Source: a virus (Duplodnaviria > Heunggongvirae > Uroviricota > Caudoviricetes). Taken from it: DNA of 19,950 nt. The DNA lies in IMG/VR virus record IMGVR_UViG_2778261164_000003. The stretch is one strand, 5' to 3'. This document shows, in pieces, positions 163 to 19,950 of this stretch (position 1 is the first letter of the stretch; every line of letters starts with the position of its first letter). The notes beneath the pieces are model-generated. The model was not told the DNA's origin, made no database searches, and was given only the letters and a program-made list of their open reading frames with translations. The position numbers and the translations under genes are program-made.

Positions 163-299
163 AAACTGTTTTTTTAGCTTAAGTTTAAGCATTCAAGCCG
201 ATTTCAGTTCCAGCGAAATCGTCTTCATAATCGATATAAAATACACCGACGACGATGACGTAAGTATTTTGAAACTGACCACGACTCATATTTATCAAA
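163..299 (-). ncRNA. Candidate structured non-coding RNA 3' of the second RT gene (speculative)
   Basis: About 137 nt of non-coding sequence between the RT stop (300) and the terminator hairpin. Contains local hairpins (CGATTTC-9nt-GAAATCG at 199..221; GCTTAA-GT-TTAAGC at about 174..187). DRT-type RT systems are known to need a cognate ncRNA. Confidence 0.2.
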
Positions 300-3586: not shown

Positions 3587-3930
3587 AATACCCTCATTAA
3601 ACTATCCTCTGTACTTTTTATAGCTCTTTCCATCACTTCCCGCAATCGTATCTCCACAACAGCGACCGCTTTATATAGCAATTTTCATAACTTCGATTAC
3701 AGCTCAAAACATGCGGTAACCGTGCCATAGTTATACCATTCAACGCCCTTACGCGGGCAGCCCCGCACGCCTGCCCGCTTCGCTTAACAGACTGGTTTTC
3801 ATGCATGCCATAAATCGTCTCAGATACCACCACACAAAGGTTTTCGCCTCAAAAAGGGTGCATAAGACTCATGCATTTTCATGCGCCATAGACATGCACT
3901 CATACGCTCTCAGGCCAGCCAGGGAAAAGG

Positions 3931-3960
3931 TGTTAAAAATCCCGGTACTCGACCGGGATT
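3931..3960 (-). terminator. Intrinsic terminator ending the satellite late operon
   Basis: Hairpin AATCCCGGT-ACTCG-ACCGGGATT. On the minus strand it is followed by UUUUUAACA, directly after the Ogr/Delta stop at 3981. Confidence 0.55.
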
Positions 3961-3980
3961 ACGTGGGCGTTTTTTTCTAA

Positions 3981-4253
3981 TCAGACAGGAATCTGCTGAC
4001 GGCTTGACAGTTTTGACGCGGAGCCATAGCGATTGAGCGTTTGCTGTTGTTTTACCGGGGGTTGTGATTTGTCTGGTTCCTGTTCATTGCGCCGGGGTTT
4101 CATGATTATCTTATCCACACTCTCCAGTGCCGTAAATGTGCAGGAACATTCCAGATTCTGGCACTGATACCACGAGCGTTTAACTGACGGAGCTTCATAG
4201 GCTGCTGTTCTGGCGTGTGCAACTGTACCGCATTCCGGACATTTAAGTGCCAT
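3981..4253 (-). CDS. Ogr/Delta-family zinc-finger late-gene transcriptional activator
   Basis: MALKCPECGTVAHARTAAYEAPSVKRSWYQCQNLECSCTFTALESV matches the P2 Ogr C-x2-C...C-x4-C zinc-finger pattern (CPLCQHAAHART...HQCQNVNCSATF). Track start 4262 is GTG; ATG at 4253 has an AGGAG Shine-Dalgarno. Confidence 0.85.
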   Translation of the reverse strand: MALKCPECGTVAHARTAAYEAPSVKRSWYQCQNLECSCTFTALESVDKIIMKPRRNEQEPDKSQPPVKQQQTLNRYGSASKLSSRQQIPV

Positions 4254-4258
4254 TAATA

Positions 4259-4810
4259 TCACTCCTGTATATCGTTAATGTCATTCAGGCGTTGCTGAAA
4301 ACGCAGATGTTGTGCCGGGGTGTAAGAACCCTGGCAATCACGAATCATCCCGGGGTCAGGCATCAAACCGGATTCATCCAGGATCTCACGATAATCCCCA
4401 GCAATTTCAGGCGGTGTTATTGCCAGCTGGCGAACCAGAGCACTGCGTAATATACGGGACGCAACGTCAACCCCTCCGCGCCCCTTCAGGAACGGAGCCA
4501 GTGCAGATGTCAGGGCTGCCCCATTCGCCTGCATAAAATTGCTGAGAGCGGCTTCTGTGCAGGCCTCCATCAGTAAATGCTGCGAGTAAATGCATTCGCG
4601 CGCAGCACAGTTAATTTGCCATTTCAGCACATCCAGACGTTCCCGCAGTAATTCGAGCTGTCGGGCATAATCTGCTGGTTTTTCTGTGGCAGCGAGGAGA
4701 GATGTTATCTGTTGTTCAACGGCTTTTCGGCTCTCATTATGTCCGGCCCACAGAATGCGGGCATTCCGAAAACTGGTAAGTGCCTGGTCAGGCGTGCCTC
4801 GGGCCGTCAT
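4259..4810 (-). CDS. psu: Psu-like protein (polarity suppression / capsid decoration), 183 aa
   Basis: Blocks LDVLKWQINCAAREC, NFMQANGAALTSALAPFL and FTPAQ resemble P4 Psu as recalled from memory. ATGA start/stop overlap with the upstream gene. Confidence 0.6.
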   Translation of the reverse strand: MTARGTPDQALTSFRNARILWAGHNESRKAVEQQITSLLAATEKPADYARQLELLRERLDVLKWQINCAARECIYSQHLLMEACTEAALSNFMQANGAALTSALAPFLKGRGGVDVASRILRSALVRQLAITPPEIAGDYREILDESGLMPDPGMIRDCQGSYTPAQHLRFQQRLNDINDIQE

Positions 4811-5550
4811 ACTGCTTTCTCCTTCTCAGCAAGTTCCTGACGAACCTTAATTTTATGCATAGCTGCCGGAGAGAGTTGATTACTGAAATCCAGACGCGCC
4901 GCATAATCCGGGGCAACTCCCGCCAGTTTAAACACCGGGTCCTGCTCAGGCATCGCATCGTTAGCCAGAGCCGGTCTGGTGATATGTTTATGAATAAAGT
5001 CTTTCAGCACTGTGTCCGGGTCATTAACTGAATTCACCACACCCACAACGGCACTGGCTTCCCGGCCCATTGTGGATTTAAGCAGGCTCAGCGTCTGAAT
5101 AAGCGCTTTTCCATGCGACTGCATAAAATCCTCCCAGATTTGTTTTGCGCGAATATCCACAAGAATGTTATGCGCGTGGATATACTTTCCGGCTAATTCT
5201 GCAGCTTTCTGCGGCAAAAGTGCATTTTCGCTTTCCTGAGCCGCCAGCAGCTCATCAAAATCCTCAAGCGTTTCTCGTCCCAGCGCAATTTCCGTGCGCA
5301 GTTTTTTCATTTCCTTTGAGACCACGCCCTGACTTTCACGAAACAGCGTGCGCCACTCCTCATTCAGTGTGTTCGTCGTGGCTTCCATTTCAGCGCGACG
5401 CTGGCGGATTGTCGCAATATTATCCGCTGCCGCTTTCTGCTGACGACGTGCTTCAAGCCATGCGTTTCTGGCTGTGTTCATGGTTTCCAGTGCCCGCTGC
5501 GTTACAGCCGGAAAAGTGGAAAGGTTGTTATTTACTGCGGTATTGTTCAT
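4807..5550 (-). CDS. Sid-like external capsid scaffold protein (Psu paralogue), 247 aa
   Basis: Psu-like blocks (AWLEARRQQ, IWEDFMQSHGKALIQTLSLL) in a 247-aa protein, close to P4 Sid length. Position upstream of psu. AGGAGA Shine-Dalgarno before ATG at 5550. Confidence 0.45.
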   Translation of the reverse strand: MNNTAVNNNLSTFPAVTQRALETMNTARNAWLEARRQQKAAADNIATIRQRRAEMEATTNTLNEEWRTLFRESQGVVSKEMKKLRTEIALGRETLEDFDELLAAQESENALLPQKAAELAGKYIHAHNILVDIRAKQIWEDFMQSHGKALIQTLSLLKSTMGREASAVVGVVNSVNDPDTVLKDFIHKHITRPALANDAMPEQDPVFKLAGVAPDYAARLDFSNQLSPAAMHKIKVRQELAEKEKAV

Positions 5551-5584
5551 GACTTCTCCTGTCGGGTTGGTTCGTTACGTCAAT

Positions 5585-5640
5585 TGTGTCGTGGCTGACA
5601 CAAGCACACTATCGGTGTTCAGTGTGTGGTGGCTGGCACA
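5585..5640 (-). promoter_or_regulatory. Two TGT-N12-ACA dyads (5585..5602 and 5623..5640): candidate Ogr/Delta-activated late promoter
   Basis: TGTgtcgtggctgacACA and TGTgtggtggctggcACA lie 38 bp apart, 35-90 bp upstream of the Sid-like start. P2/P4 late promoters carry a TGT-N12-ACA activator site. Confidence 0.45.
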
Positions 5641-5728
5641 ACGGGCGCTTGCGGTTATTCAGACGTGGCTATGAAAGCCAGCCAGATAAAAATGCCCTCT
5701 GTTTCAGTCTGCTTTATGTCCCTGATGC

Positions 5729-5916
5729 GGTGGAACAGGTGAAACATGTGTTACAGCTTTGTTTTATAAGACATTTATATACACTGCACCGGTGGAACAT
5801 CGCGGGTAACAAGGTGGAACAGCGGATTGGCTGGCGTTACATCTGTTCCACCTCACTATTTCAGAAGGTGGAACAGGTTCAGCCCTGTAAAATACGGTTG
5901 TTCCACCTGTTTCACC
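5729..5916. repeat. Iteron cluster, candidate replication origin (P4 ori/crr-like)
   Basis: Eight copies of GGTGGAACA or its complement TGTTCCACC (with GGTGAAACA variants) at 5729, 5738, 5791, 5813, 5844, 5867, 5899 and 5908, in both orientations. Resembles the P4 type I iteron TGTTCACC bound by alpha protein. Lies immediately 3' of the primase gene. Confidence 0.55.
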
Positions 5917-5950
5917 TGTTACCCTTAATAAATAAGACTCACGCAAAGCC

Positions 5951-8623
5951 TTAACCCGGCACCTCGCTGTTGAAGACATAGAGCCTGCGGGGATTCATCT
6001 CTGGCGGGCGAATGGTTGTCTGGTGTTTGCCATCAGTGGAGGGCAGCAGGTATCCACGATCTGCGCACAGACGCGCCACCTTGCGCGGGTCAAATCCCCT
6101 GCAGATTTCTTTCCAGCCGGACGGCATGACATAGAACGTAGTGACAGCTTCCGTGCCCTGCGCGGTACTGCCTTTCTCCACCCTGCGCCAGCCCACCATA
6201 TTGCCGGGGCGGTTGCGCTCGTCATACCAGTCTGCAAAGCGGCTGTACTGATTCGCGGTGAAGAAACTGCGAACCTGCTCCAGTGCGGCGATATCTTCCT
6301 GATTGGCGGTGTGCCCGCGATCTTTCAGCCATGCGTTCAGGCAGACGCGGGTTGCCCGCAGTGCTTCACCCTCAGGCCAGCCGGTGATACCCAGACGGGT
6401 TGCCAGTTCACCTGCCATCGCCACCAGAGCAAAGCGGTTCACAGCCCGGCCCACCTGATTGCCTGCATCTTTCGGAGTCAGGGCGGCAGCATATTCCTTC
6501 ATCAGCGATTTTGCCTGTGCCGTTAGTCCGTTAAGATCAGCGGTCAGTGCTTTCAGCCACTCCCGGAACGGCGAACCGTAGTAGCAGGACGTGGCCCATT
6601 CAAGATGCTCTGCCAGAGCCTTGCCGCTGTCGAAGCCGTGCAGCTCCTCAAAAACGCCAAACTTCCCGGAATCGCTGGGGATCTGGATCATCCTGACTTC
6701 CATCCCGGCAAAAGTACGCTCACCGGCCTTTGCCGCATGTTCGGTCAGAGACAACTCGCCAGTTGAAAAGAACAACAGGCGCCACTGCTTACGGGTACGC
6801 AGCTCACCGTCCGTACCGGCACGGCCCTTGCCCTGACCGTTTGCCAGCATGTAGGCGATATTGCCTGCCTCGCGTCCGTCAACTTCCCGGATCTCATCAA
6901 GCATCATGGCGGCATCGTTGCGGCGGCTGGCGCATCCCTCCAGCGCGTTGCCGGTGGCCCGCCATGTCTGCCAGTAGTCAGGCCCGCCGCAGACGGAGGT
7001 TGCCGCTTTCATGGTGGTGGTCTTACCGTCTGTCGATTCCCCTTTGAGGTGGTAGCCGCCGCCGTCCATACCAACCAGCCGTAACAGTGGTGCAGCAAAG
7101 GCCAGGCTGACAGCAAATGCCACGCGGGAGTTGCCGGTACAGTAGCGGGATACATGCTCCCGCCATTCCTCTGTTGTGCCCGACACGCGGAAATCACGCC
7201 CCTGCACGGAAGTGGTCTGGAGAATGACACCCTCTGCACCTTCACCGCTGACCTCATCCTGCAGGACGTAAACCTGACCATGCCAGCCAGTACGACTGAC
7301 GCAGGTCACGCGGCGTTCCGGTTTACACAGTGAGATATATTCCATCAGGCGTGCGCGTGCCTCACCGGTGGTGCTGATATAAGACAGCCCGTTAACCAGC
7401 AGTACCCGGCGCAGTTCCTCACCACTGCCGCTCAGCATTTCCATCGGCATCGCCCAGCGGCGACACTCACCCCACGTATCTTCCCATTCCAGCAGTCGTC
7501 CGAAGTTACCGCCATCGGCATCGCAGGTGATTGCCGTCACGCGCAGCGGGCTGCATATTTTGACGTTCTGGATCTCCGTCTCACCGTTGCGCTGTACCTG
7601 CTTTTCATACCAGAGATATTCCTGGGTAAGACGGAACCCGTGCGGCAGTTGCGTGCGGCCTTCCCCGCACAGTACCAGACCGTTGCGAAAGGCTTCACGG
7701 GCACGGGTAATACCGTGCTCCCGATGAAAGTCATTCCAGTCAGCCTTAATCTCTCCTGGTGGCAGCGTCATCCAGCCGCCAACAGCTTTTGCCGCCCGTT
7801 CAGCAAAGGCTCTGCCGGGATTCTCACCTCCGTCCTGAAAATCGTTATCACCGGCGATGATAATTTTTACCTCAGGCCAGCGTGCCCGCAGCGACTGCGC
7901 CACATTGGGCAGGTTGCCCGCAGATATGGCAGCCACTACGCATCCGGCAGTGAGCTGACTTACCGTCAGCGCCGTAGCGTAACCTTCGGTAATCACCACC
8001 TGTACCGGTGGTTCAGACGGTAACGGGCTGAGCGACACAAACGCGCCTTTCATCGTGCTGCCGGGCAGTATGCTTTTTTCACCCGTCGGGGCGATAAGCT
8101 GTGCACCAGTCACGGCTCCGGTGTTGGTCGTGAGTGGTAACAGCAGGGAACCGGCAGGAAAATCCTTACCGCTGATATGCTGCACGCTTCCGGTCAGAGA
8201 GGCCGGGTATCCGGCGAACCCTTTTCCTGTCAGATAGGCGCTTTCTCCCGTGTGGCTCTCTTTCATCAGCGCCGCCACGGTAAGACCCATGTCGCGTTTA
8301 GGGGCTTTTTGTCTGGCAGGCTTAACAGGCAGTTCCTGCACATCCGGCACATTAAGCACCTGCGCCACCTCCTGCGCAGCCTTTCTGATGCTGTAACCGG
8401 TTACGAGCTTAACCAGATCCAGACCGTCACCATTGCCACACTGGCTGCAGATCCACGTCCCGCGCCCGTCAAGGTCATCAAGGCGAAAACGATCCTTGCC
8501 CCCACATTTCGGGCAGGGACCGTGCCTGCCGTTTTCAGGTACATCAATACGCAGCATCTGGAGAATAACGGGCCATTTCCCCCGTGCAGCGGCTGAAATC
8601 TGCGTAACCGTCTGTATTGTCAT
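5951..8623 (-). CDS. P4 alpha-type bifunctional primase-helicase, 890 aa
   Basis: N-terminal zinc-binding CPKCGGKDRF...CSQCGNGDG, Toprim IIIAGDNDF, P-loop GESTDGKTT. GGGGGA Shine-Dalgarno before the ATG. Confidence 0.85.
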   Translation of the reverse strand: MTIQTVTQISAAARGKWPVILQMLRIDVPENGRHGPCPKCGGKDRFRLDDLDGRGTWICSQCGNGDGLDLVKLVTGYSIRKAAQEVAQVLNVPDVQELPVKPARQKAPKRDMGLTVAALMKESHTGESAYLTGKGFAGYPASLTGSVQHISGKDFPAGSLLLPLTTNTGAVTGAQLIAPTGEKSILPGSTMKGAFVSLSPLPSEPPVQVVITEGYATALTVSQLTAGCVVAAISAGNLPNVAQSLRARWPEVKIIIAGDNDFQDGGENPGRAFAERAAKAVGGWMTLPPGEIKADWNDFHREHGITRAREAFRNGLVLCGEGRTQLPHGFRLTQEYLWYEKQVQRNGETEIQNVKICSPLRVTAITCDADGGNFGRLLEWEDTWGECRRWAMPMEMLSGSGEELRRVLLVNGLSYISTTGEARARLMEYISLCKPERRVTCVSRTGWHGQVYVLQDEVSGEGAEGVILQTTSVQGRDFRVSGTTEEWREHVSRYCTGNSRVAFAVSLAFAAPLLRLVGMDGGGYHLKGESTDGKTTTMKAATSVCGGPDYWQTWRATGNALEGCASRRNDAAMMLDEIREVDGREAGNIAYMLANGQGKGRAGTDGELRTRKQWRLLFFSTGELSLTEHAAKAGERTFAGMEVRMIQIPSDSGKFGVFEELHGFDSGKALAEHLEWATSCYYGSPFREWLKALTADLNGLTAQAKSLMKEYAAALTPKDAGNQVGRAVNRFALVAMAGELATRLGITGWPEGEALRATRVCLNAWLKDRGHTANQEDIAALEQVRSFFTANQYSRFADWYDERNRPGNMVGWRRVEKGSTAQGTEAVTTFYVMPSGWKEICRGFDPRKVARLCADRGYLLPSTDGKHQTTIRPPEMNPRRLYVFNSEVPG

Positions 8624-9003
8624 ACTTCCCCCTGATACAACGTCACACCGGTACTGCAGAAGTCATCAAAGGCCGCCGGAAGCGTGCGGTACATCTCCGC
8701 CATCACTTCACAGCCGCGCGCGGTCAGTACCGGCGGCGCGGTCAGCAGTGACGGCTCCAGCATGTCAGTCAGCAGTGCCAGCGCGGCAGCGGCGCCCTGT
8801 GCTTCGCCGTACTCGTTAATCAGTACGCACTCGATATGCAGCGCAATGGCCATTTCAATACGCTCCACCGTCAGGCTGTGCGGACCATACTGATCACTGC
8901 CAGTTTCGTTCAGCATTTTCTGCCGCCATGCTGAAGCAATAGCCCGCCGGTAAAGCGCGGTGGTCATTTCTGCCGGGAAAATGGAAACCTGCGGCTGGTT
9001 CAT
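8620..9003 (-). CDS. Hypothetical protein, 127 aa, translationally coupled to primase
   Basis: ATGA overlaps at both ends (9003/9000 and 8623/8620). No motif recognised. Confidence 0.5.
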   Translation of the reverse strand: MNQPQVSIFPAEMTTALYRRAIASAWRQKMLNETGSDQYGPHSLTVERIEMAIALHIECVLINEYGEAQGAAAALALLTDMLEPSLLTAPPVLTARGCEVMAEMYRTLPAAFDDFCSTGVTLYQGEV

Positions 9004-9284
9004 CTGGCACCTCCTTCAATCAGTGCGCAGCTGTGTGCAATATCCGTCAAATCTGCCAGCAGGTACTCCATCAGCGCGGCGACACCATGCGCACAGCCAG
9101 TGTCCAGTGCTCCGGCCTGAGACGGGTATTCAGAAAAGAGAAGCTGGAGCATGTCGCAGGCATTTCTTGCGCGGGTCAGCTTTCCGAAACTGTCCTCTGA
9201 CAACCCATAGGCAAAAACACCGGTATTGTGTTTTTCAGGCAAAGTGTGGCCCTGAGCACCGTTGTGCCCGTTTGAAATATTCAT
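9000..9284 (-). CDS. Hypothetical protein, 94 aa
   Basis: ATG start, operon position, ATGA overlap with the downstream ORF. Confidence 0.45.
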   Translation of the reverse strand: MNISNGHNGAQGHTLPEKHNTGVFAYGLSEDSFGKLTRARNACDMLQLLFSEYPSQAGALDTGCAHGVAALMEYLLADLTDIAHSCALIEGGAR

Positions 9285-9315
9285 CGTGGATTACTCCGTT
9301 TTCAGCGGTATTGTG

Positions 9316-9675
9316 TCAGAGAAACTTTGAATAGTGACCGTCATCAGGCTCAGCAGAACGCCATATGCTACGCTCCCGCCAGCGGATAAATAGCACAGAC
9401 GGATGCAGTGTCAGCGGGCCGGAACCACTACCGCCTGCAGGAGCTGGTGCAGGCTTAAAGAGCGGTACATCAAACAGGCGCGTATATCGCTGTTCAAACC
9501 ATGCCAGAGGGCAGGAAGAAAGCTGGTTGTCGCTGTCATGACGTATCAGCACTTCACAGCTGAATTCAGGATTAACCAGCGCCACAGAGGGCGAGGCTTC
9601 TATTAATCGGATAATCGTGACCGTCCAGCCACGTTCATGCTGCCAGCGTTCGCCGGGATGCGGATAATTACGCAT
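9316..9675 (-). CDS. Hypothetical protein, about 119 aa
   Basis: Track start 9705 is TTG. The first ATG (9675, MRNYPHPG) overlaps the stop of the small upstream ORF (ATGCGTAA). Confidence 0.4.
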   Translation of the reverse strand: MRNYPHPGERWQHERGWTVTIIRLIEASPSVALVNPEFSCEVLIRHDSDNQLSSCPLAWFEQRYTRLFDVPLFKPAPAPAGGSGSGPLTLHPSVLFIRWRERSIWRSAEPDDGHYSKFL

Positions 9676-9844
9676 GTTCACCTCCGCAGGGAATGCGCCC
9701 GGCAAAGCTCAGTACATAGTCCGGGGCAAGTCTGCGCCGCGCTGACCGCTCGTTATCTGCGGTGATCCTTAACATCACAGGACGGGCATTGCGTTGACTG
9801 CGGTTGATCGCCGCAAATAACCAGGTACACTTCTGTTTAGCCAT
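9668..9844 (-). CDS. Small hypothetical protein, 58 aa (below the ORF-track cutoff)
   Basis: MAKQKCTWLFAAINRSQRNARPVMLRITADNERSARRRLAPDYVLSFAGRIPCGGEHA. Its stop overlaps the next gene's start. Confidence 0.35.
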   Translation of the reverse strand: MAKQKCTWLFAAINRSQRNARPVMLRITADNERSARRRLAPDYVLSFAGRIPCGGEHA

Positions 9845-9933
9845 CTTCGTTACCTCTTATAACGGTTGGTTAAATGCCCGATTTGTGTTCCCGCACAATC
9901 GGGCATTGCTTTTACAAGCGAACTATACTTACA

Positions 9934-9977
9934 ATGGTAATTACCATGTAGTCATCATATTCTAGGGTAATTACCAT
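9934..9977. promoter_or_regulatory. Twin palindromic operators ATGGTAATTACCAT / GGGTAATTACCAT
   Basis: The perfect palindrome GGTAATTACC occurs twice (9936..9945 and 9966..9975), 30 bp centre to centre. The second copy overlaps the ATG of the Arc-like gene. Confidence 0.5.
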
Positions 9978-10149
9978 GTCAACACCACAAGAGAAACGTT
10001 CTCCACCATTCCAAATGCGTCTTACCGACGATTTTAGGTTGCAACTCGAAAACGAAATGCGCAAAGATGGAGATAGCGCGTTGGCAACTTGGATTAAAAG
10101 AATTTTACGCAAAGAACTCCAATCACGCGGGATTGACCCTAAAGGCTAA
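9976..10149 (+). CDS. Arc/MetJ-type ribbon-helix-helix DNA-binding protein, 57 aa (absent from the ORF track)
   Basis: MSTPQEKRSPPFQMRLTDDFRLQLENEMRKDGDSALATWIKRILRKELQSRGIDPKG. The FQMRL...ENGrS-like beta-strand/helix pattern is typical of Arc-like repressors. Confidence 0.6.
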   Translation: MSTPQEKRSPPFQMRLTDDFRLQLENEMRKDGDSALATWIKRILRKELQSRGIDPKG

Positions 10150-10181
10150 TCAGTTAAATATTACTAACTATCAATTAAGGC

Positions 10182-10472
10182 TTAGGGAGTAGGTGATAAT
10201 CTATTCCCTTTATTAATTGCTCTTGCCTTATTTCTCATCCCCTCAAACTGTTGACCTGAGTTTTCTTCAAACCCATCTCGCCACTTATAATAATCAGCAG
10301 CGCGCCATCGTGACATCCGACCTATTTTTATAGGTTTTGGAAAGCGATTCAGAGAAATCAATCGATAAATCCATTTATCACTTAATAAACAATCGGAAGT
10401 AATAAACTTCATATCGATCAGAGAATCCATTGAAGGTCGTTGCAAAGTAGTATTATCATGTTTAGATAACAT
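10182..10472 (-). CDS. AlpA-family phage regulatory protein (HTH, excisionase-like), 96 aa
   Basis: YRLISLNRFPKPIKIGRMSRWRAADYYKW fits the AlpA signature (FPKPIKIG-R...W). GGAGAA Shine-Dalgarno before the ATG. Confidence 0.55.
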   Translation of the reverse strand: MLSKHDNTTLQRPSMDSLIDMKFITSDCLLSDKWIYRLISLNRFPKPIKIGRMSRWRAADYYKWRDGFEENSGQQFEGMRNKARAINKGNRLSPTP

Positions 10473-10597
10473 TCATCATTCTCCGTTTATCTAAGTCTAT
10501 TGGCTTCAACACGGAAAATTAAAACATAGGTTATAAATGAGAAAAATGTGACTAATGAAAAAAATTCAAAATCATTAGCCACAACAATTGTTAATAT

Positions 10598-11422
10598 TTA
10601 GTTAAACTTAATGTTTTTCATGCAACTACGTAGCAAACTAACAACAGTATCATAGCTCAAAGGCGGTTCTCCGGTCTTAGGCCAGAACTCACTGGCATGT
10701 TGAAAAAGATAATCAGCTATCGCTGCTGGACTCTCTCTTCTTAGCCTCATATCACGATGATAGAGCGAAATAATAGCCATGAGTATTTCAGCTCGAGGAA
10801 CAGCATGTTTTTGTTTTTGCGCCTCAGATTGTGATTTATATTTATTGGCGTTTTTTATCCGCTTTTGTTCGCATAAGACTATATCAATGAATTTTTGAAT
10901 CTGTACCTTTGTAATCCACAAAACCTCAAAAAGATAATAATTTTCTTTTTCATCATAATTTACATAAAGAATTACCTTACAATTTATATTAGGCGTACCC
11001 GCCAGTAGAAAATGAATAGGCCAGGAATCCGGTTGCCCCTCATGCTTAACTAACAGATCTTTATATTCATAATCAACAGCCCATAAACCGGATATGAAGC
11101 ATCGAATAAAACCATTTTTATCAATTAAATTATCTTCATCAGGGATTCTTATAGAACTTAAGTCTGACAACATAATATTGCCATTTCTATCTCGTGGTAA
11201 ATATTTCAGATTAGATAAGAACTCATCTATTTGACCATCAATCTTCAAACCACATGAAACATCATACTCATCATCATGGAATTCCATGCATAGCTCTACA
11301 TCTCGTTCTCTGGCAAACCAGAGTATATCCTTTTCACTACAACCAATTTTTTCTGAAGCTTCATCCAACTGGTAGTAATCTCTGAGCAGAGAATCAGTAT
11401 TATTAATTTTTAAAATATTCAT
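10598..11422 (-). CDS. Hypothetical protein, 274 aa, AT-rich cargo gene coupled to the integrase
   Basis: Its ATG overlaps the integrase stop (ATGA). Composition is strongly AT-rich relative to neighbours. No catalytic motif recognised. Confidence 0.6.
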   Translation of the reverse strand: MNILKINNTDSLLRDYYQLDEASEKIGCSEKDILWFARERDVELCMEFHDDEYDVSCGLKIDGQIDEFLSNLKYLPRDRNGNIMLSDLSSIRIPDEDNLIDKNGFIRCFISGLWAVDYEYKDLLVKHEGQPDSWPIHFLLAGTPNINCKVILYVNYDEKENYYLFEVLWITKVQIQKFIDIVLCEQKRIKNANKYKSQSEAQKQKHAVPRAEILMAIISLYHRDMRLRRESPAAIADYLFQHASEFWPKTGEPPLSYDTVVSLLRSCMKNIKFN

Positions 11423-12609
11423 TTATGAGTACCAATTTGCTCAGATAAATAATTAGCATACCATTGCATCATTTCTCTTCTCCCTTCGAGATATTGGGCA
11501 TGGTTATAAATTCCACGAATAGAGTTTTTGTCCGAATGAGCAAGCTGGGTTTCAATCCAAGCGCTGTTAAATCCTTTCTCATGTAGGATTGTACTCATCG
11601 TATGCCTGAAACCATGCCCCGTAACACGCCCTGCATATCCAATACGTTTAAACACCTGATTAATGCTTGCTTCACTCATAAATTTGCTGGGATCGTTGCG
11701 TCCAGGGAACATCAGCGGGTAGTTCCCAGTTAGTTCTTTCAAACTTTTGAGATGGGATAATGCTTGTTTTGACAACGGGACAATATGGCTCCTACGCATT
11801 TTCATACGTTCTTTTGGGATCTCCCACACCGCATTATCAAAATCCACCTCTCGCCACTCACCTGCTCGTAGTTCTCCAGTTCGTAGACCTGTCAGGATAA
11901 GTAAATGCGCCCCCAACAATACAATTGGACTTCCTGAATAAGAATTAAGGGCATTAAAGAACTCCGGTAGTTCGTTGGCTTTGAGGAATGGATAGTGGAC
12001 TGCTTCATGTCCTTGCATCGCACTGGCAAGATCCGGTGCCGGATTGTAGATTGCCCTACCCGTTACGATGGCATAGCGAAAAACTTCACCGCATCGCTGA
12101 CGGACTTTCTTCGCTTTCTCCATAGCGCCTCGAGCTTCTATCAACCTCAGAACTTCAAGCAGTTCAAGGGGCTGAATATCAGCTATAGGTCTGTGCCCAA
12201 TATGCGGGAAAATGTCTTTCTCGAATGCCTCAATGATGTCGGAAGCATAGCCCTCAGACCATTTGGGTGATTTCATTTTGTGCCACTCTAACGCCACTTC
12301 TCTGAATGGGTTAAGTGTCTCACTCGCTGCATTTAAAGCCTGCTTTTTGGCTTTTTTGACTTCGCCGGGATCTTCACCTGCTGCGAGTAGTTTCTTCGCG
12401 TCTTCTCGTTTTTGTCTGGCATCAGCAAGTGTGACTGTTGGATAAACACCAAAGGACAATCGTTTCTCTTTACCAGCAAAACGGTATTTCATACGCCAGT
12501 AACGCGAGCCATTAGGTTCGACCTGAAGGTATAGGCCACCTCCATCAAACAGCTTGTAGCTCTTCTCTTTTCCTTTCGCAGCTTCAACCTTGCGGGCATT
12601 CAGCATCAT
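11419..12609 (-). CDS. int: P4-type tyrosine integrase
   Basis: N-terminal KLFDGGGLYLQV...YWRMKYRF arm-binding region and C-terminal catalytic HGFRHT...RGIYNHAQY. Track start 12678 is TTG; tandem ATG ATG at 12609 with AGGAAA upstream. Confidence 0.9.
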   Translation of the reverse strand: MMLNARKVEAAKGKEKSYKLFDGGGLYLQVEPNGSRYWRMKYRFAGKEKRLSFGVYPTVTLADARQKREDAKKLLAAGEDPGEVKKAKKQALNAASETLNPFREVALEWHKMKSPKWSEGYASDIIEAFEKDIFPHIGHRPIADIQPLELLEVLRLIEARGAMEKAKKVRQRCGEVFRYAIVTGRAIYNPAPDLASAMQGHEAVHYPFLKANELPEFFNALNSYSGSPIVLLGAHLLILTGLRTGELRAGEWREVDFDNAVWEIPKERMKMRRSHIVPLSKQALSHLKSLKELTGNYPLMFPGRNDPSKFMSEASINQVFKRIGYAGRVTGHGFRHTMSTILHEKGFNSAWIETQLAHSDKNSIRGIYNHAQYLEGRREMMQWYANYLSEQIGTHK

Positions 12610-12685
12610 TGGGGGCACATTTCCTAGACCGAACAGAACATGCCCCTGATTGTGCCCCCAACCGCGTGTTGATTTCAAGAGACAA

Positions 12686-12758
12686 GGGTTGACCTCAAAC
12701 GTATGAAAACAACGTAATATATATGTTTTTAAATGATTTTGTTGATGTGGGTTGACTT
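12686..12758. promoter_or_regulatory. Direct repeats GGGTTGACCT / GGGTTGACTT between int and att core
   Basis: Two 10-mers at 12686..12695 and 12749..12758, 63 bp apart, upstream of int. Candidate integrase arm-type sites or promoter -35 elements. Confidence 0.3.
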
Positions 12759-12773
12759 GGGAAAACTAGGTGA

Positions 12774-12818
12774 TGGTGCCGATAATAGGAGTCGAACCTA
12801 CGACCTTCGCATTACGAA
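12774..12818 (-). other. Attachment-site core: 3' 45 nt of a tRNA-Thr(CGU) gene, not an intact tRNA
   Basis: Minus strand reads TTCGTAATGCGAAGGTCGTAGGTTCGACTCCTATTATCGGCACCA: anticodon loop with CGT, T-arm GGTTCGACTCC, acceptor 3' half and CCA. It matches my memory of E. coli thrW. The 5' half of the tRNA is absent from the flanking sequence. Confidence 0.7.
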
Positions 12819-13234
12819 TTATAAGAATCCGCTTCTAATTCAAAGCATTACCCCATCAACACTGCGCTCACACGTCCCACCACATCAAAACATGTAAAGC
12901 CTTGCAAGTCATTGCGAGGCCTTATGTGTCTCAGTTTTGTCCCACCTTGTATTACGACTTGCATAGCCAATGAAGATAAATGTGACGACAAACGGCGCAG
13001 CAGTCTTCTTTTCCTTCATACTTTCCCCACCCAGCATGCATACCTTCTACCATAACTGTAGTTAATGTCTGTTATGAGCGAAAAGCGGTCCTTAAATACA
13101 ATTTTCATTGATAACGCCGTCTTGTTGCTATTGAAGACATTATCAACATCATTGTGTTTTTACTTATATTTGAAGGAGGGCTATTCAAGGGATTGCCCCC
13201 TTTTAACAAAAATTCCACCAGAACAGTAGGTCTG

Positions 13235-14929
13235 CTAATTGGTCTCTATAATTGAGCTTAATTCGTTAATGAGCAGGTGAGGGCTCATTTGAGTTAAGTC
13301 ATACTGCCTCCCCAATTTCTCTTGCATTCCTCCTCGTATTTTCTTTAATAAATATTTGCCTTTAATGTTATTAACTGATGTCGGAACTTGGTTTCCAAAT
13401 AATGTTAGGTGTCGAGGGCATGCTTCCAGTCTCCCCTTATATAAATTATATTTAATCACCTCTCTTTTGGATTGAAAATCAGACTGGATGACAACATGAT
13501 TTTGTGCGGCTATATCAGTAATCCATGTTTGTATATCTTGCACAGAAGAGCCTGTAACATGAGATAAATGCTCTATTCTGGTAAAATAACTCTCAATATC
13601 ACTACCTTCAGTAATGAATGGAATGGCGCCACCTCTTTGAATTTCTGCTTTTACTATATCTACTTCTTCATCAGTCATAAAATCGCGGTCACGATGAATT
13701 ATAACCTTGCAATTAGGGGACATTTCCTTAAGAAGGTCAGCAGATACAATTGCTCCTTGCACATTTGTGCATGTTTTGTAGCTATAGACTGCAGTTCTCT
13801 CCATATCAAAACCATTATATTGTAAAAGGGCCTTGAAATATTTTTTATCTCTATCTTCAGTGAGAAATATATTCTCCACAACCCCTTCAGTTACTCTATC
13901 CAAGTCATTTAAAGCTCCTAAATCTAAGAACATTGATATTTTGTCCAAATCCATGCCTTGATTCTGAACATTACCATCTTTCATCCAAATAAAATTTGCC
14001 TCTCCATACAATGAATCAATTATATGTTTGCTATGAGTGGAAAGTATAACTTGAGTTTCTGATTTGTTATTTTCTGATATTAAACTCAATGAGTCAGTGA
14101 GAATATATTGATTATCAGGGTGAAGATGAGAATCCGGTTCATCTAAGAGTAATAATTTAGGTTTGAAATATACTATATATGCAAATATCTGTAATGTTTG
14201 AAGTAATCCAGTTCCCGCCAACTCGATAGGGTAATTTTTCCCACTTGCATTTTCTTTAAAATTAACGGTTAGATAAGTATCTTTATCCTCTTTGAAATCC
14301 ACTTCGATTTCTATATCTGGAAATACAACTTGCAGCATGCTATTGAGATTTACCAAGTGGTTATCTTTGTTCAGATAGTATATGACATTCCTTAAGTATA
14401 AATTTGCATCACCACTTGCCACTCCTCTTCTAACTATTGCTGGCGATTTTAATTCTTCCTTCTGTGAGATACCAGCCAGACCAGGAACATATATACTAAA
14501 GAGATTTTTTTCATCGGTGATTACTGAACCGAAGCCGGTATAATCACCGGTTCTTTCACATGACATATTTCCATGATTTCGTCCCTTAGATATAATTATA
14601 TTGTATTCTAATTGTCGACCAACAAGATCATCATATCCAAAAAGACTCAACACACTTTGATTGCCAGGCGACCTCGAATTCTTATAAGGTTCGCCGTTCT
14701 TTAAAACAGTGAAGTCTGGGGTGATATTATACATTAAAAGTTCAGTAGAGAATGTTTGTTGACTTTGTTGCCGAGCGGCAATAGCTGCGCATACTGAAAA
14801 ATGTATAGCTTGCAGAATACTGCTCTTACCTGAACTATTTGCCCCTACTAATACATTTATATCACTAAGGGTGATTTCTGCTGTGTCAATTTTTTTGAAT
14901 TTACTAACAGACAAAGACTTAATGAACAT
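13235..14929 (-). CDS. OLD-family ATP-dependent nuclease (ABC-type ATPase plus Toprim), standalone class-1 type like phage P2 Old
   Basis: Walker A LVGANSSGKSS, Walker B/H-loop LLLLDEPDSHLHPDNQ and LSTHS; C-terminal Toprim-like NIFLTEDRD and VIIHRDRDF. Length comparable to P2 Old and GajA. No UvrD-like partner follows. Track start 14947 is TTG; ATG at 14929 has an AAGGAA Shine-Dalgarno. Confidence 0.7.
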   Translation of the reverse strand: MFIKSLSVSKFKKIDTAEITLSDINVLVGANSSGKSSILQAIHFSVCAAIAARQQSQQTFSTELLMYNITPDFTVLKNGEPYKNSRSPGNQSVLSLFGYDDLVGRQLEYNIIISKGRNHGNMSCERTGDYTGFGSVITDEKNLFSIYVPGLAGISQKEELKSPAIVRRGVASGDANLYLRNVIYYLNKDNHLVNLNSMLQVVFPDIEIEVDFKEDKDTYLTVNFKENASGKNYPIELAGTGLLQTLQIFAYIVYFKPKLLLLDEPDSHLHPDNQYILTDSLSLISENNKSETQVILSTHSKHIIDSLYGEANFIWMKDGNVQNQGMDLDKISMFLDLGALNDLDRVTEGVVENIFLTEDRDKKYFKALLQYNGFDMERTAVYSYKTCTNVQGAIVSADLLKEMSPNCKVIIHRDRDFMTDEEVDIVKAEIQRGGAIPFITEGSDIESYFTRIEHLSHVTGSSVQDIQTWITDIAAQNHVVIQSDFQSKREVIKYNLYKGRLEACPRHLTLFGNQVPTSVNNIKGKYLLKKIRGGMQEKLGRQYDLTQMSPHLLINELSSIIETN

Positions 14930-14976
14930 TTTCTTTTCCTTTTTCAATGAAAGGTGTAAAACTTTAACTCATCATT

Positions 14977-15261
14977 TTAGTTGTTAACATTCAAAATCAT
15001 AAACTGATTCTCTATTTTACCAATGAATAGCAGTCCTATCAGAGTAAAAATAGTGTTAGATATTTTTCTTACATCTGAATCTGAGAAATATTCGGATTCT
15101 TTATAGCAATTATTCCATATGTCGAGTTCTCTAAAATCATAAGCTAAATGAGCAATTTTTCCCCAATCTTCATTTACTATATGCTCAGCCATTGTAAAAA
15201 AATCACTCTTAGTCGGAATGTCTATTCTCATTGTTACTTGGCCTATTTTTTCATTGCTCAC
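14977..15261 (-). CDS. Possible small ORF upstream of the OLD nuclease (doubtful)
   Basis: 94 codons from a GTG. No convincing Shine-Dalgarno at the GTG or at either internal ATG. May instead be the 5' UTR of the OLD gene. Confidence 0.2.
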   Translation of the reverse strand: MSNEKIGQVTMRIDIPTKSDFFTMAEHIVNEDWGKIAHLAYDFRELDIWNNCYKESEYFSDSDVRKISNTIFTLIGLLFIGKIENQFMILNVNN

Positions 15262-15458
15262 ATATATAACTATATGATATTTATATTAAAACTCCAACAT
15301 TAAGTTTCGGCTTTCTTCAAGTAAACTACATAGCACGATGTAAGCAACTTCCGCTTTTGGCACATAGCAGTCCTAGAGATACTGGCGTAAAGCCATGGAG
15401 GATCGGTGGGAGGAGGTAAAAATCCTCTCATGCAAAAAATACGCAAAATCGATAACAG

Positions 15459-15541
15459 TTGGAAATCATTCAATACTCGCACTATCGGAAGTTCACCAGC
15501 CAACCGCAGCACGTTCTTGCATACGACATGCCTGCGGTTTC
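15459..15541 (+). repeat. Hairpin-containing repeat, copy A
   Basis: About 83 bp, roughly 87% identical to copy B. Contains CCGCAGCACG-loop-(C)ATGCCTGCGG followed by TTT. Confidence 0.7.
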
Positions 15542-15684
15542 AACTCCCGCCAGCTCCACCAATCATGATTGGACGGTTAAGGACAACACCAATAAAAACA
15601 GGAAGTTAGCAGTCTCAGCAGGACACCGACCAGACGGTGAGGAGACAAAAAAGGATACGCAAAGGAGCCGCGGCTCCCGAGTGA

Positions 15685-15720
15685 CAAAAAAGCCCGCTTA
15701 TGCGGGCTTTTTTGTTTTTT
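15685..15720. terminator. Bidirectional intrinsic terminator after the Bro-N gene
   Basis: AAAAAAGCCCGC-TTAT-GCGGGCTTTTTTGTTTTTT: GC stem flanked by an A-run and a T-run. Confidence 0.7.
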
Positions 15721-15730
15721 TCCCTCAAGC

Positions 15731-16492
15731 TCACTGACGTGTTCTTGCCTCAACTACTTTCTGGTATATAGCGATAGCTTCATCAACCAAAGCTAATGGA
15801 TAGCAAGAATTTATATTCAATCCGGAGGGGCACTTAATTCTTTCTGCTCCACGTTCACTACGCAATTTTTCACACCATTGCCAAAGTTCCTCAACTGAAT
15901 AGGTATCCAAACCTAACTCCATCAATCGTTGAGGAACACTTCTGAACTGAGACAAATCTCTTAAACTTTCTAACGAGTTAACTTTTAGTTCAACTTGGTT
16001 TACTCTACTTTCTAACTCTTCACGTTTTTCTATTTCCATTACCAATGCTTGAACCGTCTGCTGCAGACTGTTAGCAAAAGCACTCAGTTCTGAACGTTCT
16101 TGTTTAGGTGGCGGAGGATATACACCAAATTCACGAATAGACGGAAGGACCTGATGAAAAAGCCAGCGTTGGAATTTTTTCCCCGCAGCAGTAGTATCCT
16201 GAGCAAGTACTCTATATAGACCTGGTTCAGTAAGAAATACCTCAGAGATAGTTTCACCATCCACGACAAGAGAAACATTCCTAAACTCATCTGGATCTAA
16301 AGTTTTTATTACCGCTCTTATTACAGTGAGCAAGCTTTGAGAAGTCTTTCCATCCAGTTTTCTGTTCTCAGCAGAAAGCGTTCTTAGCACATCTGAAAGT
16401 GAAACAAAAATCTGCCCTTTTTCATTCATGCTACGGATATAATTTTCTCCACACTCTCCTTCGTAGCATAATTGTAACAAATTCTTTTGCAC
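15731..16492 (-). CDS. Bro-N domain protein with C-terminal coiled-coil region (antirepressor-like), 253 aa
   Basis: N-terminal YIRSMNEKGQIFVSLSDVLRTL and FQRWLFHQVLPSIREFGVY match the Bro-N pattern. GTG start at 16492 with AGGAGG 5 nt upstream. Confidence 0.6.
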   Translation of the reverse strand: MQKNLLQLCYEGECGENYIRSMNEKGQIFVSLSDVLRTLSAENRKLDGKTSQSLLTVIRAVIKTLDPDEFRNVSLVVDGETISEVFLTEPGLYRVLAQDTTAAGKKFQRWLFHQVLPSIREFGVYPPPPKQERSELSAFANSLQQTVQALVMEIEKREELESRVNQVELKVNSLESLRDLSQFRSVPQRLMELGLDTYSVEELWQWCEKLRSERGAERIKCPSGLNINSCYPLALVDEAIAIYQKVVEARTRQ

Positions 16493-16770
16493 GCCATCCC
16501 CTCCTTTTTTTATGGATTATACATCCTATAAACATGTTGTCACCGAAAGGGAAAAGCATAAACCCAATTTATGTTCCACAAGATGTTCAAAAATCAAACA
16601 ACCATATAGCTGAGGAGCACAAAAGAGCAAAAGTTTACCAACCCCATATATCCATACAGCACATAAAATTGACACTACATGTGGTATTTTTTAAGTTACG
16701 CCTTGCACCATTTCATGATTTTATGTAGATTGTCATCACACGCTGAGATTAAAAAATTCTACAATTTTTG

Positions 16771-16799
16771 TTGATCTTGAGTTTGGTTTTTAGTATAAG
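16771..16799 (+). promoter_or_regulatory. Sigma70-like promoter for the HTH/peptidase operon
   Basis: TTGATC, 17-bp spacer, TATAAG, about 25 bp upstream of the ATG. Confidence 0.4.
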
Positions 16800-16825
16800 T
16801 GAGCATGGATTGTAGGAGGCGCAAC

Positions 16826-17176
16826 ATGGTAACTAGCTTTGGTAAGACTCTCAGAAAAATGAGAATAGACCGGGGTATGGTGCTCAAAAATATGGCTGAT
16901 CTGTTAGGCGTTAGTTCGGCTTACTTATCCGCCATTGAATTAGGCAAAAGAGCTATACCGGACTCATTAGTAAATACGATTGCAACAACTTTTGAGCTTA
17001 GCGGACAAGACATCATCAATCTCAAGAAACAGGCAGAGATTTCTCAACCGTCCATTAAGGTTGATATGTCGGATGCAAATGAGCAGAACAAAGAACTAAT
17101 GCTTGTTTTTGCTCGTAAATTTAAGGACCTGAGTCCAGAGCAACTCGATAAGCTTAATAAAATGTTAAAGGACTGA
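16826..17176 (+). CDS. XRE-family helix-turn-helix transcriptional regulator, 116 aa
   Basis: LKNMADLLGVSSAYLSAIELGKR HTH motif. AGGAGG 7 nt before ATG 16826 (track start 16799 is GTG). Confidence 0.85.
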   Translation: MVTSFGKTLRKMRIDRGMVLKNMADLLGVSSAYLSAIELGKRAIPDSLVNTIATTFELSGQDIINLKKQAEISQPSIKVDMSDANEQNKELMLVFARKFKDLSPEQLDKLNKMLKD

Positions 17177-17179
17177 ATA

Positions 17180-17713
17180 ATGATTGCGAAACGAGAACTT
17201 GGCCATCGCGTTTCACCTCTCAGCACCAGCATGATTAAATCATACGCTCATCGTCTGAGAGACGTTCTTCAGATATCAAATCACACATATCTGAGACTGG
17301 ATGTATTACTAGAAGGTCTTATGGCCTCAGAAAGCATTGAGCTAGAAATTGTTGAAGATCATGAACTGCCCAAACGCTATGCAGTGACTTATCCAGATAA
17401 GAACAAAATTGTTTTACAGCGATCTGTTTACGATGCAGTGTGCAATGGTGAGAACCATGCGAGATTCACTGTTGCGCATGAACTTGGTCATTTAGTCATG
17501 CATCGCAATCAAAGTATCTATGCACGTAATAAGACTAGTGGAGGGCATAAAATCTATGAAGACAGCGAATGGCAAGCAGATGTTTTTGCAAGCCACTTCT
17601 TAATTGACTCAAGACTAGTTTTGCCCACAATGACTGTTGAAGATATAAGCAAAACATTTGGTGTCAGTCAACAAGCGGCTGAAACCTGGATGAGAAAAAA
17701 TGCAAAAAGATAA
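17180..17713 (+). CDS. ImmA/IrrE-family zinc metallopeptidase, 177 aa
   Basis: HEXXH motif in TVAHELGHLVMH. Start lies 4 nt after the HTH stop, with AAAGGA Shine-Dalgarno. Confidence 0.85.
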   Translation: MIAKRELGHRVSPLSTSMIKSYAHRLRDVLQISNHTYLRLDVLLEGLMASESIELEIVEDHELPKRYAVTYPDKNKIVLQRSVYDAVCNGENHARFTVAHELGHLVMHRNQSIYARNKTSGGHKIYEDSEWQADVFASHFLIDSRLVLPTMTVEDISKTFGVSQQAAETWMRKNAKR

Positions 17714-17720
17714 CGAAAAA

Positions 17721-17743
17721 GCCAGCGAACCGCTGTCGCTGGC
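17721..17743 (+). terminator. Weak terminator-like hairpin after the peptidase gene
   Basis: GCCAGCGA-ACCGCTG-TCGCTGGC followed by TTCTCCT (poor T tract). Confidence 0.3.
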
Positions 17744-17838
17744 TTCTCCTATCGTAAGCAAATACGAAAAACTTGGCGGTTGTGAGTATACGCTTACCTT
17801 AGGTTTTGTCAACAGCGAAACTTTACAGGTAACACGAT

Positions 17839-17982
17839 ATGACCATTGAAAAAGCTGTATCTGAGGAATACATCACAATTTACCGTCCTTTTATTACGGT
17901 CAAAGGTAAACGGATCTTTGCTCGTCAAAAAGGCTTGGCAGCCTTTCCTATCAAAATTCCTGCCTCTAAGTATCGAGGATAA
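17839..17982 (+). CDS. Small hypothetical protein, 47 aa (absent from the ORF track)
   Basis: MTIEKAVSEEYITIYRPFITVKGKRIFARQKGLAAFPIKIPASKYRG. AGGTAA 8 nt upstream; followed 15 nt later by a terminator. Confidence 0.35.
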   Translation: MTIEKAVSEEYITIYRPFITVKGKRIFARQKGLAAFPIKIPASKYRG

Positions 17983-17996
17983 TCTTTGCTAATCTT

Positions 17997-18021
17997 AGGC
18001 CCTTTTCTAGGGCCTTTTATT
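17997..18021 (+). terminator. Intrinsic terminator after the 47-aa ORF
   Basis: AGGCCC-TTTTCTA-GGGCCT followed by TTTATT. Confidence 0.5.
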
Positions 18022-18133
18022 ACACTTCTGTTACGCGCACCACAGATAGAGTTTCAGCTAAAACTTTTGTTCATACCTAGGAGTCTGCTGACGAGTGGTT
18101 TGTTCACTAATAAACACGTAAAAACGGTAACGG

Positions 18134-18215
18134 CTGGACATCATTCAATATTCGCACTATTGGAAGTTCACCAGCCAGCCACAGCACGTTCTTGCATACA
18201 ACGTGCCTGCGGTTT
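18134..18215 (+). repeat. Hairpin-containing repeat, copy B
   Basis: About 82 bp matching copy A. Hairpin CCACAGCACG-loop-CGTGCCTGCGG followed by TTTTT. Confidence 0.7.
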
Positions 18216-18307
18216 TTGAGACCGGTCCGATCATCAAACGAAACATAAAATTAGCTCACACTATGAGGAAAAGTATCTTTTTTTACTATGTAAATTCAAA
18301 GAATTAG

Positions 18308-19177
<870 letters not shown>

Positions 19178-19197
19178 GTCTTTAAGTGATAAGCATA

Positions 19198-19239
19198 AAC
19201 CGCAGCACGATCTTCTTCCATACGACGTGCTACGGTTTC
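19198..19239. repeat. Hairpin-containing repeat, copy C; likely bidirectional terminator between convergent genes
   Basis: CCGCAGCACG-16nt-CGTGCTACGG (9 of 10 bp paired) matching the 3' part of copies A and B. Flanked by T-rich tracts on both strands. Sits between the GIY-YIG stop (19177) and the invertase stop (19238). Confidence 0.6.
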
Positions 19240-19792
19240 ATTTATCTCCGACCGGAAACTTCTTATACAGTGTCGATATACCAACATCATAGATGATCGC
19301 CACCTTCTGGCGAGGGACGCCTGATGCAATTAATCGCCCGGCCTGCGCCCATTGTTCTGGTGTAAGTTTGGGACGACGTCCACCAATTCGTCCCTGTGCG
19401 CGAGCAGCGTCCAGTCCAGCTTTTGTTCGTTCAACAATCAGTTCTCGTTCCATTTCAGCCAGGGCACCCATCATATGAAAGAAAAAACGCCCCATCGGTG
19501 TGCTGGTATCAATAGCATCCGTCAGGCTGCGAAAATTAACGCCACGTTCGCGCAACTCCTCAACCAGAATGACCAGATGCCGCATACTACGCCCCAGCCG
19601 ATCCAGCTTCCAGACAACCAGAGTGTCACCTACCGATAATGTCCTGAGCAGTTTTTTCAGTCCCGGCCTTTCGGACTTTGTACCGCTTATCTTGTCTTCA
19701 AAAATCAGCTCGCATCCTGCACAGTTCAGCGCATTACGTTGTAGATCTGTGTTCTGGTCATTTGTTGACACACGTACATAGCCAATAAGCAT
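19238..19792 (-). CDS. Serine DNA invertase of the Hin/Gin/Pin/Cin family, 184 aa
   Basis: MLIGYVRVSTNDQNTDLQRNAL...LVVWKLDRLGRS...MGRFFFHMMGALAEMERELIVERT...C-terminal HTH. Near-colinear with Hin as recalled. GGGAGA Shine-Dalgarno before ATG 19792 (track start 19828 is upstream). Confidence 0.9.
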   Translation of the reverse strand: MLIGYVRVSTNDQNTDLQRNALNCAGCELIFEDKISGTKSERPGLKKLLRTLSVGDTLVVWKLDRLGRSMRHLVILVEELRERGVNFRSLTDAIDTSTPMGRFFFHMMGALAEMERELIVERTKAGLDAARAQGRIGGRRPKLTPEQWAQAGRLIASGVPRQKVAIIYDVGISTLYKKFPVGDK

Positions 19793-19950
19793 GGTAGATC
19801 TCCCTGACAAAAGCAGGAATGATGCCATTTGCTCGTTATTTCTGCATTTTCATAAACGTTGGTTTGGGAGAATCGGCAAAACGGAATGTGGGCAACGGGG
19901 AAAACCAAATCCCTGATATGTCTTTCTGGACGGTTACTGGTGGCAATGGA

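Follow-up and report, generated by a model that had tools for sequence, protein, structure and literature searches.

The window, by which we mean the whole 19,950-nucleotide stretch of DNA analysed here, contains two sets of genes that meet at a 45-nt fragment of a threonine tRNA gene (positions 12774-12818). The left-hand set (78-12773) is encoded on the minus strand, and the segment from 78 to 12819 is 99.9% identical to a block present in many complete Escherichia coli genomes. In those copies, the RefSeq annotation lists an integrase, an HTH regulator, Icd-like and DUF5375 genes, a TOPRIM/DUF927 primase, a 'septation initiation' (sid-like) gene, Psu, an Ogr/Delta-like gene, Drt3a and Drt3b. 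The gene that adjoins the tRNA fragment, on the same strand, encodes a tyrosine integrase of the P4 type (11419-12609, minus strand; Pfam Arm-DNA-bind_3, Phage_int_M and Phage_integrase; WP_040075774.1). The gene-calling program had placed this open reading frame at 11419-12678 with a TTG start, and the RefSeq start of identical copies moves its beginning to 12609. Farther from the fragment lie a gene for an alpha-type primase/helicase of P4 (5951-8623, minus strand; Pfam Zn_Ribbon_Prim, Toprim_3 and DUF927, the last with an E value of 2e-90) and a cluster (3981-5550, minus strand) of sid-like (4807-5550), psu (4259-4810) and delta-like (3981-4253) genes, which take their names from RefSeq's entry for the MB52 copy, 99.9% identical to this one (L002 coordinates minus 5923). 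The core set of P4-like satellites, that is int, alpha, sid, psu and delta, is thus present in full (Pfam, and RefSeq annotation of the 99.9%-identical copies), and by its gene content the left element is a P4-like phage satellite, with a length of ~12.8 kb when complete.

The hotspot between psu and the attachment site is occupied by drt3a (2309-3586, minus strand; PADLOC Drt3a, E 1.4e-129, with which RefSeq agrees) and by drt3b (300-2318, minus strand; PADLOC Drt3b, E 8e-204, RefSeq 'antiviral reverse transcriptase Drt3b'), the second reverse transcriptase of DRT type 3. The two genes are adjacent and overlap, as in DRT type 3, and are predicted to form a defence cassette of that type. Two further observations concern the non-coding parts of the satellite. 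Approximately 390 bp of non-coding DNA (3587-3980) upstream of drt3a separate this gene from the delta-like gene, and the immunity region between the Icd-like and HTH genes gave a weak symR-like Rfam match (9839-9910, plus strand; 31.6 bits, E 0.015, below the gathering score) that could represent a P4 CI-type small regulatory RNA or chance.

At its far end the satellite is interrupted by an insertion sequence. Positions 1-77 correspond to an IS903B-type end (96% over 78 bp to the annotated IS903B end in TF5, L005 27838-27915), which replaces the last ~170 bp of the satellite together with its distal att copy; all other genomes match the window from base 78 only, and a 40-mer across the IS-satellite junction had no exact match in genome contigs or metagenome contigs. 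Because the IS903-type element cuts the distal end, the competence of the satellite for excision is doubtful, and the insertion may have immobilised it.

The prophage end and its cargo

The right part of the window (12819-19950) is 99.9% identical to E. coli strain H7, where the DNA continues past the homologous segment into tail-fibre genes, Mu-like baseplate, sheath and tube genes, and HK97-type head, portal and terminase genes. The segment is therefore the end of a full-size prophage. The window itself stops (19950) within the tail-fibre/invertase region, of which only the invertase is visible, the tail-fibre genes being seen in H7; SfV-type Int/Xis and the HK97-type head and Mu-like tail genes were likewise seen in relatives, namely H7 (99.9%) or E. 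coli 50EVAW, which shares the junction of the window (12474-13081 at 98.4% identity). A megablast search of the right part against a phage collection returned short matches only, mainly to invertase genes, and the family was found by a protein search with the integrase of a relative: the Int of the 50EVAW prophage is 99.7% identical to that of SfIV, 99.5% to that of SfII, 99.2% to that of SfI and 98.1% to that of SfV, and ~90% identical to the Int of P22-like Salmonella phages.

The edge of the prophage adjoining the tRNA fragment (12819-13088) corresponds to the attP arm that lies on the gtrA side in SfV. Its first 126 bp (12819-12944) are 94.4% identical to the SfV DNA flanking the 45-nt core of that phage (L008 7593-7468), and the arm is kept up to ~13088 in 13 genomes with the same junction. 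The thrW core and the SfV arm, at 98% identity, were also seen in a 3.8-kb contig of a metagenome-assembled genome, Candidatus Scatousia excrementigallinarum (L009 778-949), which most likely entered the bin as a contaminant from E. coli or Shigella. Searches of 12819-19950, Pfam and PADLOC among them, revealed no genes of a gtrABC cassette. The prophage therefore resembles SfV in the integration module and, as seen in relatives, in the genes for morphogenesis, but it is not serotype-converting.

Where SfV has gtrABV, the window has a variable cargo slot (13089-15537, minus strand) that holds a gene for a 570-aa ABC-type ATPase (13235-14947; Pfam AAA_15, 1.5e-28, and AAA_21, 1.3e-23) and a 94-aa ORF (14977-15261). 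The best PADLOC matches of the 570-aa protein (NsnB, AriA, Old and GajA) are confined to the ATPase part, the C-terminal half being uncharacterised, and the two genes together are a candidate defence system. In other genomes, the same flanks enclose retron Ec48, an S1 peptidase or hypothetical genes, and the slot is a possible defence hotspot for which we found no description in the literature searched.

Beyond the slot lies a conserved, int-distal accessory region (15731-19828; Pfam and PADLOC), 99.9% identical to H7. It comprises genes for a BRO-N protein (15731-16492, minus strand) and, on the plus strand, for an HTH protein (16799-17176; PADLOC CapH model, 6e-11), an ImmA/IrrE metallopeptidase (17180-17713; PADLOC CapP model, 5e-15) and a GIY-YIG protein of the PD-T4-3 type (18353-19177; PADLOC E 2.7e-140), followed by a Pin-type invertase (19238-19828, minus strand). 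The location of the HTH and ImmA/IrrE genes just upstream of PD-T4-3 suggests that either PD-T4-3 or the divergent BRO-N gene may be under DNA-damage-responsive control. Where the variable slot borders on the conserved BRO-N gene, the segment 15645-15790 contains a strong GC-rich hairpin with a T-run; its sub-threshold Rfam matches to leaders and small RNAs were rejected, the element being a single intrinsic terminator hairpin. An initial annotation of this DNA, made from the letters alone, had suggested that each element carries defence cargo at its distal end, and the assignments agree with it: Drt3a/b in the satellite, and the ATPase candidate and PD-T4-3 in the prophage.

The thrW fragment and its relatives

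The fragment at which the two gene sets meet (12774-12818; plus-strand sequence TGGTGCCGATAATAGGAGTCGAACCTACGACCTTCGCATTACGAA) equals, in reverse complement and without a mismatch (45/45), positions 32-76 of thrW, the reference being the 76-nt tRNA-Thr(CGU) gene of E. coli 50EVAW as delimited by ARAGORN. Position 32 opens the anticodon loop and position 76 ends the CCA; the match stretches to 46-47 nt, with position 31 and the first base past the CCA also agreeing. The DNA rightward of 12819 (TTATAAGAATCC...) shows no resemblance to the 5' half of the tRNA when aligned with the 50EVAW thrW. ARAGORN detected zero tRNAs in the whole window and Rfam gave zero tRNA matches, even at E<=1, leaving no intact tRNA over 12774-12850. 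The initial annotation had read the 45 nt beside int as the 3' part of tRNA-Thr(CGU), from the anticodon loop to the CCA, with the 5' half of the gene replaced by unrelated DNA, and on both points the comparison with thrW bears it out. The 45-mer is single-copy in the window (0 expected, 200 shuffles), no second copy of the core being present even when up to 3 mismatches are allowed. It has the same orientation as the intact thrW of 50EVAW, and the window sequence contains no IS end at 12819.

An identical 45-mer is found in SfV (NC_003444) between gtrA and int, and the int side of the SfV attP matches the DNA next to the intact thrW in 50EVAW. Since the SfV core is exact and the arm beyond it is 94.4% identical, the junction in the window is precisely the attR of an SfV-family prophage. 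The fragment also belongs to the satellite, as shown by the repeats that bound this element elsewhere. In MS1665 a direct repeat of 19 nt without mismatches, CTCCTATTATCGGCACCAT, bounds the satellite, its copies being spaced by 12,826 bp, and in MB52 it runs ~170 bp beyond the break of the window to a degenerate thrW copy (L002 5808-5830); this distal copy, in both MB52 and QDFD216, is 23 nt long with a one-base deletion. The att core of the satellite itself therefore consists of only the last ~19-23 nt of thrW. By thrW identity, the 19-nt repeat maps to window positions 12773-12791 and the ~23-nt variant to 12774-12797, and because these bases fall within the fragment, the 45 nt (minus strand, thrW positions 32-76) form a hybrid junction that is prophage attR and satellite attL at once. 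Of the thrW repeats that flank the satellite, the window has the proximal copy (12774-12818); the distal copies were seen in relatives only, as the IS903-type end sits at 1-77.

The arrangement expected around such a junction can be followed in related genomes. In 50EVAW the order is proA, an intact thrW, an SfV-type int oriented toward the tRNA, a ~40-kb prophage, the 45-nt core, and the P4-like integrase WP_040075774.1, and in QDFD216 the prophage lies between two direct 45-nt cores 38.5 kb apart. Singly occupied sites are found as well. In MS1665, proB and proA are followed by an intact thrW, directly beside it the identical integrase WP_040075774.1, and then the satellite, a yagP remnant and paoD, the hotspot cassette of this satellite being an AAA ATPase and an S8 peptidase instead of Drt3a/b. 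In a set of 5,426 complete E. coli genomes, the satellite int is contiguous with an intact thrW and proA in 52, while 343 have the yagP-side chromosomal flank contiguous with the full 45-nt core and the SfV arm, and 13 have the tandem junction of the window (satellite int, core, SfV arm). These 13 genomes come from varied hosts and countries, and the identity of their arms ranges from 89.8 to 99.5%; none of the complete E. coli genomes matches the window over >=80% of its length. Thus the further core copies and the intact tRNA-Thr that the initial annotation had proposed to look for are present in relatives (both in 50EVAW, and the core copies, at a spacing of 38.5 kb, in QDFD216 as well), as are the singly occupied sites, with the satellite alone in 52 genomes and the prophage end in 343.

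The same fragment adjoins other elements too. In E. coli, thrW is listed among the tDNAs most often targeted (PMC7545054). A search with a 45-mer spanning core and arm returned three loci only, all without the satellite. Its neighbours in MB52 are a divergent integrase with a frameshift and an island that encodes a type I restriction system. In H7 the core (L003 19956-20000) separates the end of the prophage from an island of the CP4-6 type that terminates in yeeU/cbtA, and in PEC1003 it adjoins an element with conjugative-transfer genes, a ~48-nt thrW overlap being joined to the arm of another element. The 112-nt 'tRNA-Ser' that RefSeq places over the core in PEC1003 (L013 4301-4412) and in GPEC60-12-649 is spurious; ARAGORN finds nothing there. 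QDFD216 has the 45-nt fragment between the prophage int and a third element (L004 39340-39384), and the presence of the fragment at such further internal junctions (QDFD216, H7) implies that arrays of at least three elements occur at thrW. With a third element past the prophage and a region rearranged by IS1, QDFD216 was dropped as a clean model of the array.

Origin of the junction and order of events

Tyrosine integrases that target tRNA genes use an attP that carries the 3' part of the gene; upon integration the gene is restored at one end of the element, and its former 3' portion ends up at the opposite end (Hudson et al. 2015, PMC4383910). Judged on the sequence comparisons above, the 45-nt fragment is very probably the attachment site inside a tandem array in which two unrelated integrative elements occupy the thrW hotspot of E. 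coli. Read in the orientation of the tRNA, such an array would begin with proA, an intact thrW, an SfV-type int/xis and an SfV-family prophage of ~38-40 kb that ends in accessory and defence genes, and would continue with the 45-nt fragment, the P4-type int, the 12.8-kb satellite with Drt3a/b, a short thrW repeat and yagP'/paoD. The SfV-type integrase would act on an attP with a 45-46-nt copy of the thrW 3' end, by an anticodon-loop-type crossover, rebuilding the tRNA beside int and shifting the displaced 3' portion to the end of the prophage away from int, where it would be the fragment in the window. The P4-type integrase would use the last ~19-23 nt of thrW, by a T-stem/acceptor-type crossover; both classes, anticodon-type and T-stem-type, are tabulated in Islander (PMC4383910). 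The fragment is 45 nt long because the anticodon-loop-type att core of the phage and its integrase, and not the P4-type enzyme, set its length, and the 26-27 nt beyond the satellite repeat, explained only by a phage-type core, constitute independent evidence of two integration systems.

The initial annotation had interpreted the junction as an internal attachment site of a tandem array, a view that the 50EVAW gene order, the occupancy counts and the SfV attP match all favour. It had further proposed that a second element, starting at 12819, entered the same tRNA. The SfV attP arm upholds this as regards an integrated element, and its nature has to be revised: it is an SfV-family temperate phage and not another P4-type island. 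An intact thrW and the phage int presumably lie ~35 kb beyond the window in the same genome, an expectation that carries no guarantee for the tRNA, since some relatives (QDFD216) have the fragment at that end of the prophage and then a third element.

As for the order of the two integrations and the ability of either element to excise today, both are matters that we infer. The order is not readable from the sequence, because both orders give the SfV arm, 45 nt of thrW and the int-side arm of the satellite. We consider it an even chance that the satellite was resident beside an intact thrW and that an SfV-family phage integrated later, so that the former 3' 45 nt and the satellite were moved downstream. 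This course has a laboratory precedent, in which incoming SfI entered the tRNA-proximal attL of a resident SfX (PMC3306764), and its presumed precursor state, with the same int protein, exists in the 52 satellite-only genomes; the opposite order, however, yields an identical final sequence, and the alternative precursor, a prophage end alone, is even commoner (343 genomes). That opposite order, with the prophage in place first and the satellite then entering the 45-nt fragment that the phage had displaced (the prophage attR), is possible, if not the course that we would expect. The fragment holds the complete 19-23-nt repeat of the satellite, the 343 genomes with yagP flank, 45-nt core and SfV arm supply a precursor, and the occurrence of 99.9%-identical satellite copies beside several different neighbours suggests recent mobility. 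On the other hand, it has to be assumed that a P4-type Int can use a core without the 5' half of the tRNA as its left flank, and the intact tRNA would compete as a target. By analogy with the SfI/SfX experiment (PMC3306764), the balance slightly favours the phage having arrived second.

It is rather unlikely that the tandem block was imported whole, by homologous recombination or by transduction of the proA-pao region from another strain. The recurrence of the junction in 13 complete genomes of varied hosts and countries, with arm identities of 89.8 to 99.5%, would fit such a transfer, and the core genes proA and paoD on the flanks would supply homology. Import would account for the spread of the block but not for its origin, the junction still needing site-specific integration; moreover, the cargo slot matches H7 only, where the neighbour is a different island, which indicates that modules are being reshuffled and argues against transfer of the block as a whole. 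The chance that there was no second integration at all, the tRNA having been truncated by a deletion or by an IS-mediated or illegitimate rearrangement, is close to negligible: an IS903-type element does sit at 1-77 and the thrW region is heavily IS-rearranged in some relatives (QDFD216), but the breakpoint coincides exactly with the place where the SfV att core stops, with the SfV attP arm beyond it in the correct orientation, no IS end is present at 12819, and related genomes have a second direct repeat and an intact tRNA at the far end.

The tandem array at thrW, our preferred reading, is real but ordinary; it is of a known kind and a product of textbook site-specific recombination. Its value is chiefly for annotation. 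Since a partial tRNA next to an integrase signals an internal boundary, the proA-pao block ought to be annotated as two mobile elements, each with cargo of its own, and not treated as one island, and the length of the fragment (45 nt versus ~19-23 nt) reveals which integrase family made it. We found no paper describing the pairing of an SfV-type phage with a P4-like satellite, an arrangement present in 13 public complete genomes, and the present case adds this one documented combination to a known hotspot. The variable cargo slot of SfV-type prophages may deserve a survey for defence systems. The current understanding of integration or defence is unchanged.

A more consequential interpretation is highly improbable in our judgement. 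The shared 45-nt site could be functionally exploited, with recombination between the outermost thrW copies producing a composite circle of prophage and satellite; or an SfV-family phage, rather than a P2-like one, could mobilise the satellite or be parasitised by it; or, in a milder form, the former gtr slot could be an undescribed defence hotspot and the ATPase and 94-aa pair a new defence system. Were the composite circle or the SfV-family helper true, co-residence at thrW would be a selected partnership and not two independent hits on a hotspot.

Comparison with known systems

The closest parallel is the tandem of SfI and SfX at tRNA-thrW of Shigella flexneri, which was made in the laboratory (Sun et al. 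2011, PMC3306764). Both tandems occupy the same tRNA gene and involve the same integrase family (50EVAW Int being 99.2% identical to SfI Int), and both have an internal att site between the elements, with the prophage int and the accessory genes at opposite ends. They differ in the second element, here a P4-like satellite whose P4-type integrase is unrelated and whose core is shorter, and in that the gtr O-antigen genes are here replaced by other cargo. In the comparison with SfV (NC_003444), the attP core is identical over 45 nt and the adjoining arm 94% identical over 126 bp (12819-12944), whereas SfV carries gtrA-gtrB-gtrV by this arm and the window has the ABC-type ATPase, BRO-N, HTH/ImmA, PD-T4-3 and Pin invertase genes.

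For P4-like satellites, a hotspot of defence genes located between psu and int has been described (Rousset et al. 2022, PMC9122126). The left element conforms to this plan in its int, alpha, sid, psu and delta genes and in the variable defence cassette between psu/delta and the att end. There is no substantive difference, although the copy in the window lacks an intact tRNA beside it and has lost its distal end to an IS.

Islander catalogues tandem tDNA arrays (Hudson et al. 2015, PMC4383910), the members of which bring one integrase and one tDNA fragment each, the fragments being oriented alike. Of these features the window shows the satellite int and a tDNA fragment oriented like the intact gene; the prophage int was seen in the junction-sharing relatives 50EVAW and QDFD216, and the intact tDNA at the proximal end of the array in 50EVAW. 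Both crossover classes are represented. Compared with the arrays in that catalogue, the one described here has two members that use different crossover classes in one tRNA, so that the longer of the two cores dictates how long the internal fragment is.
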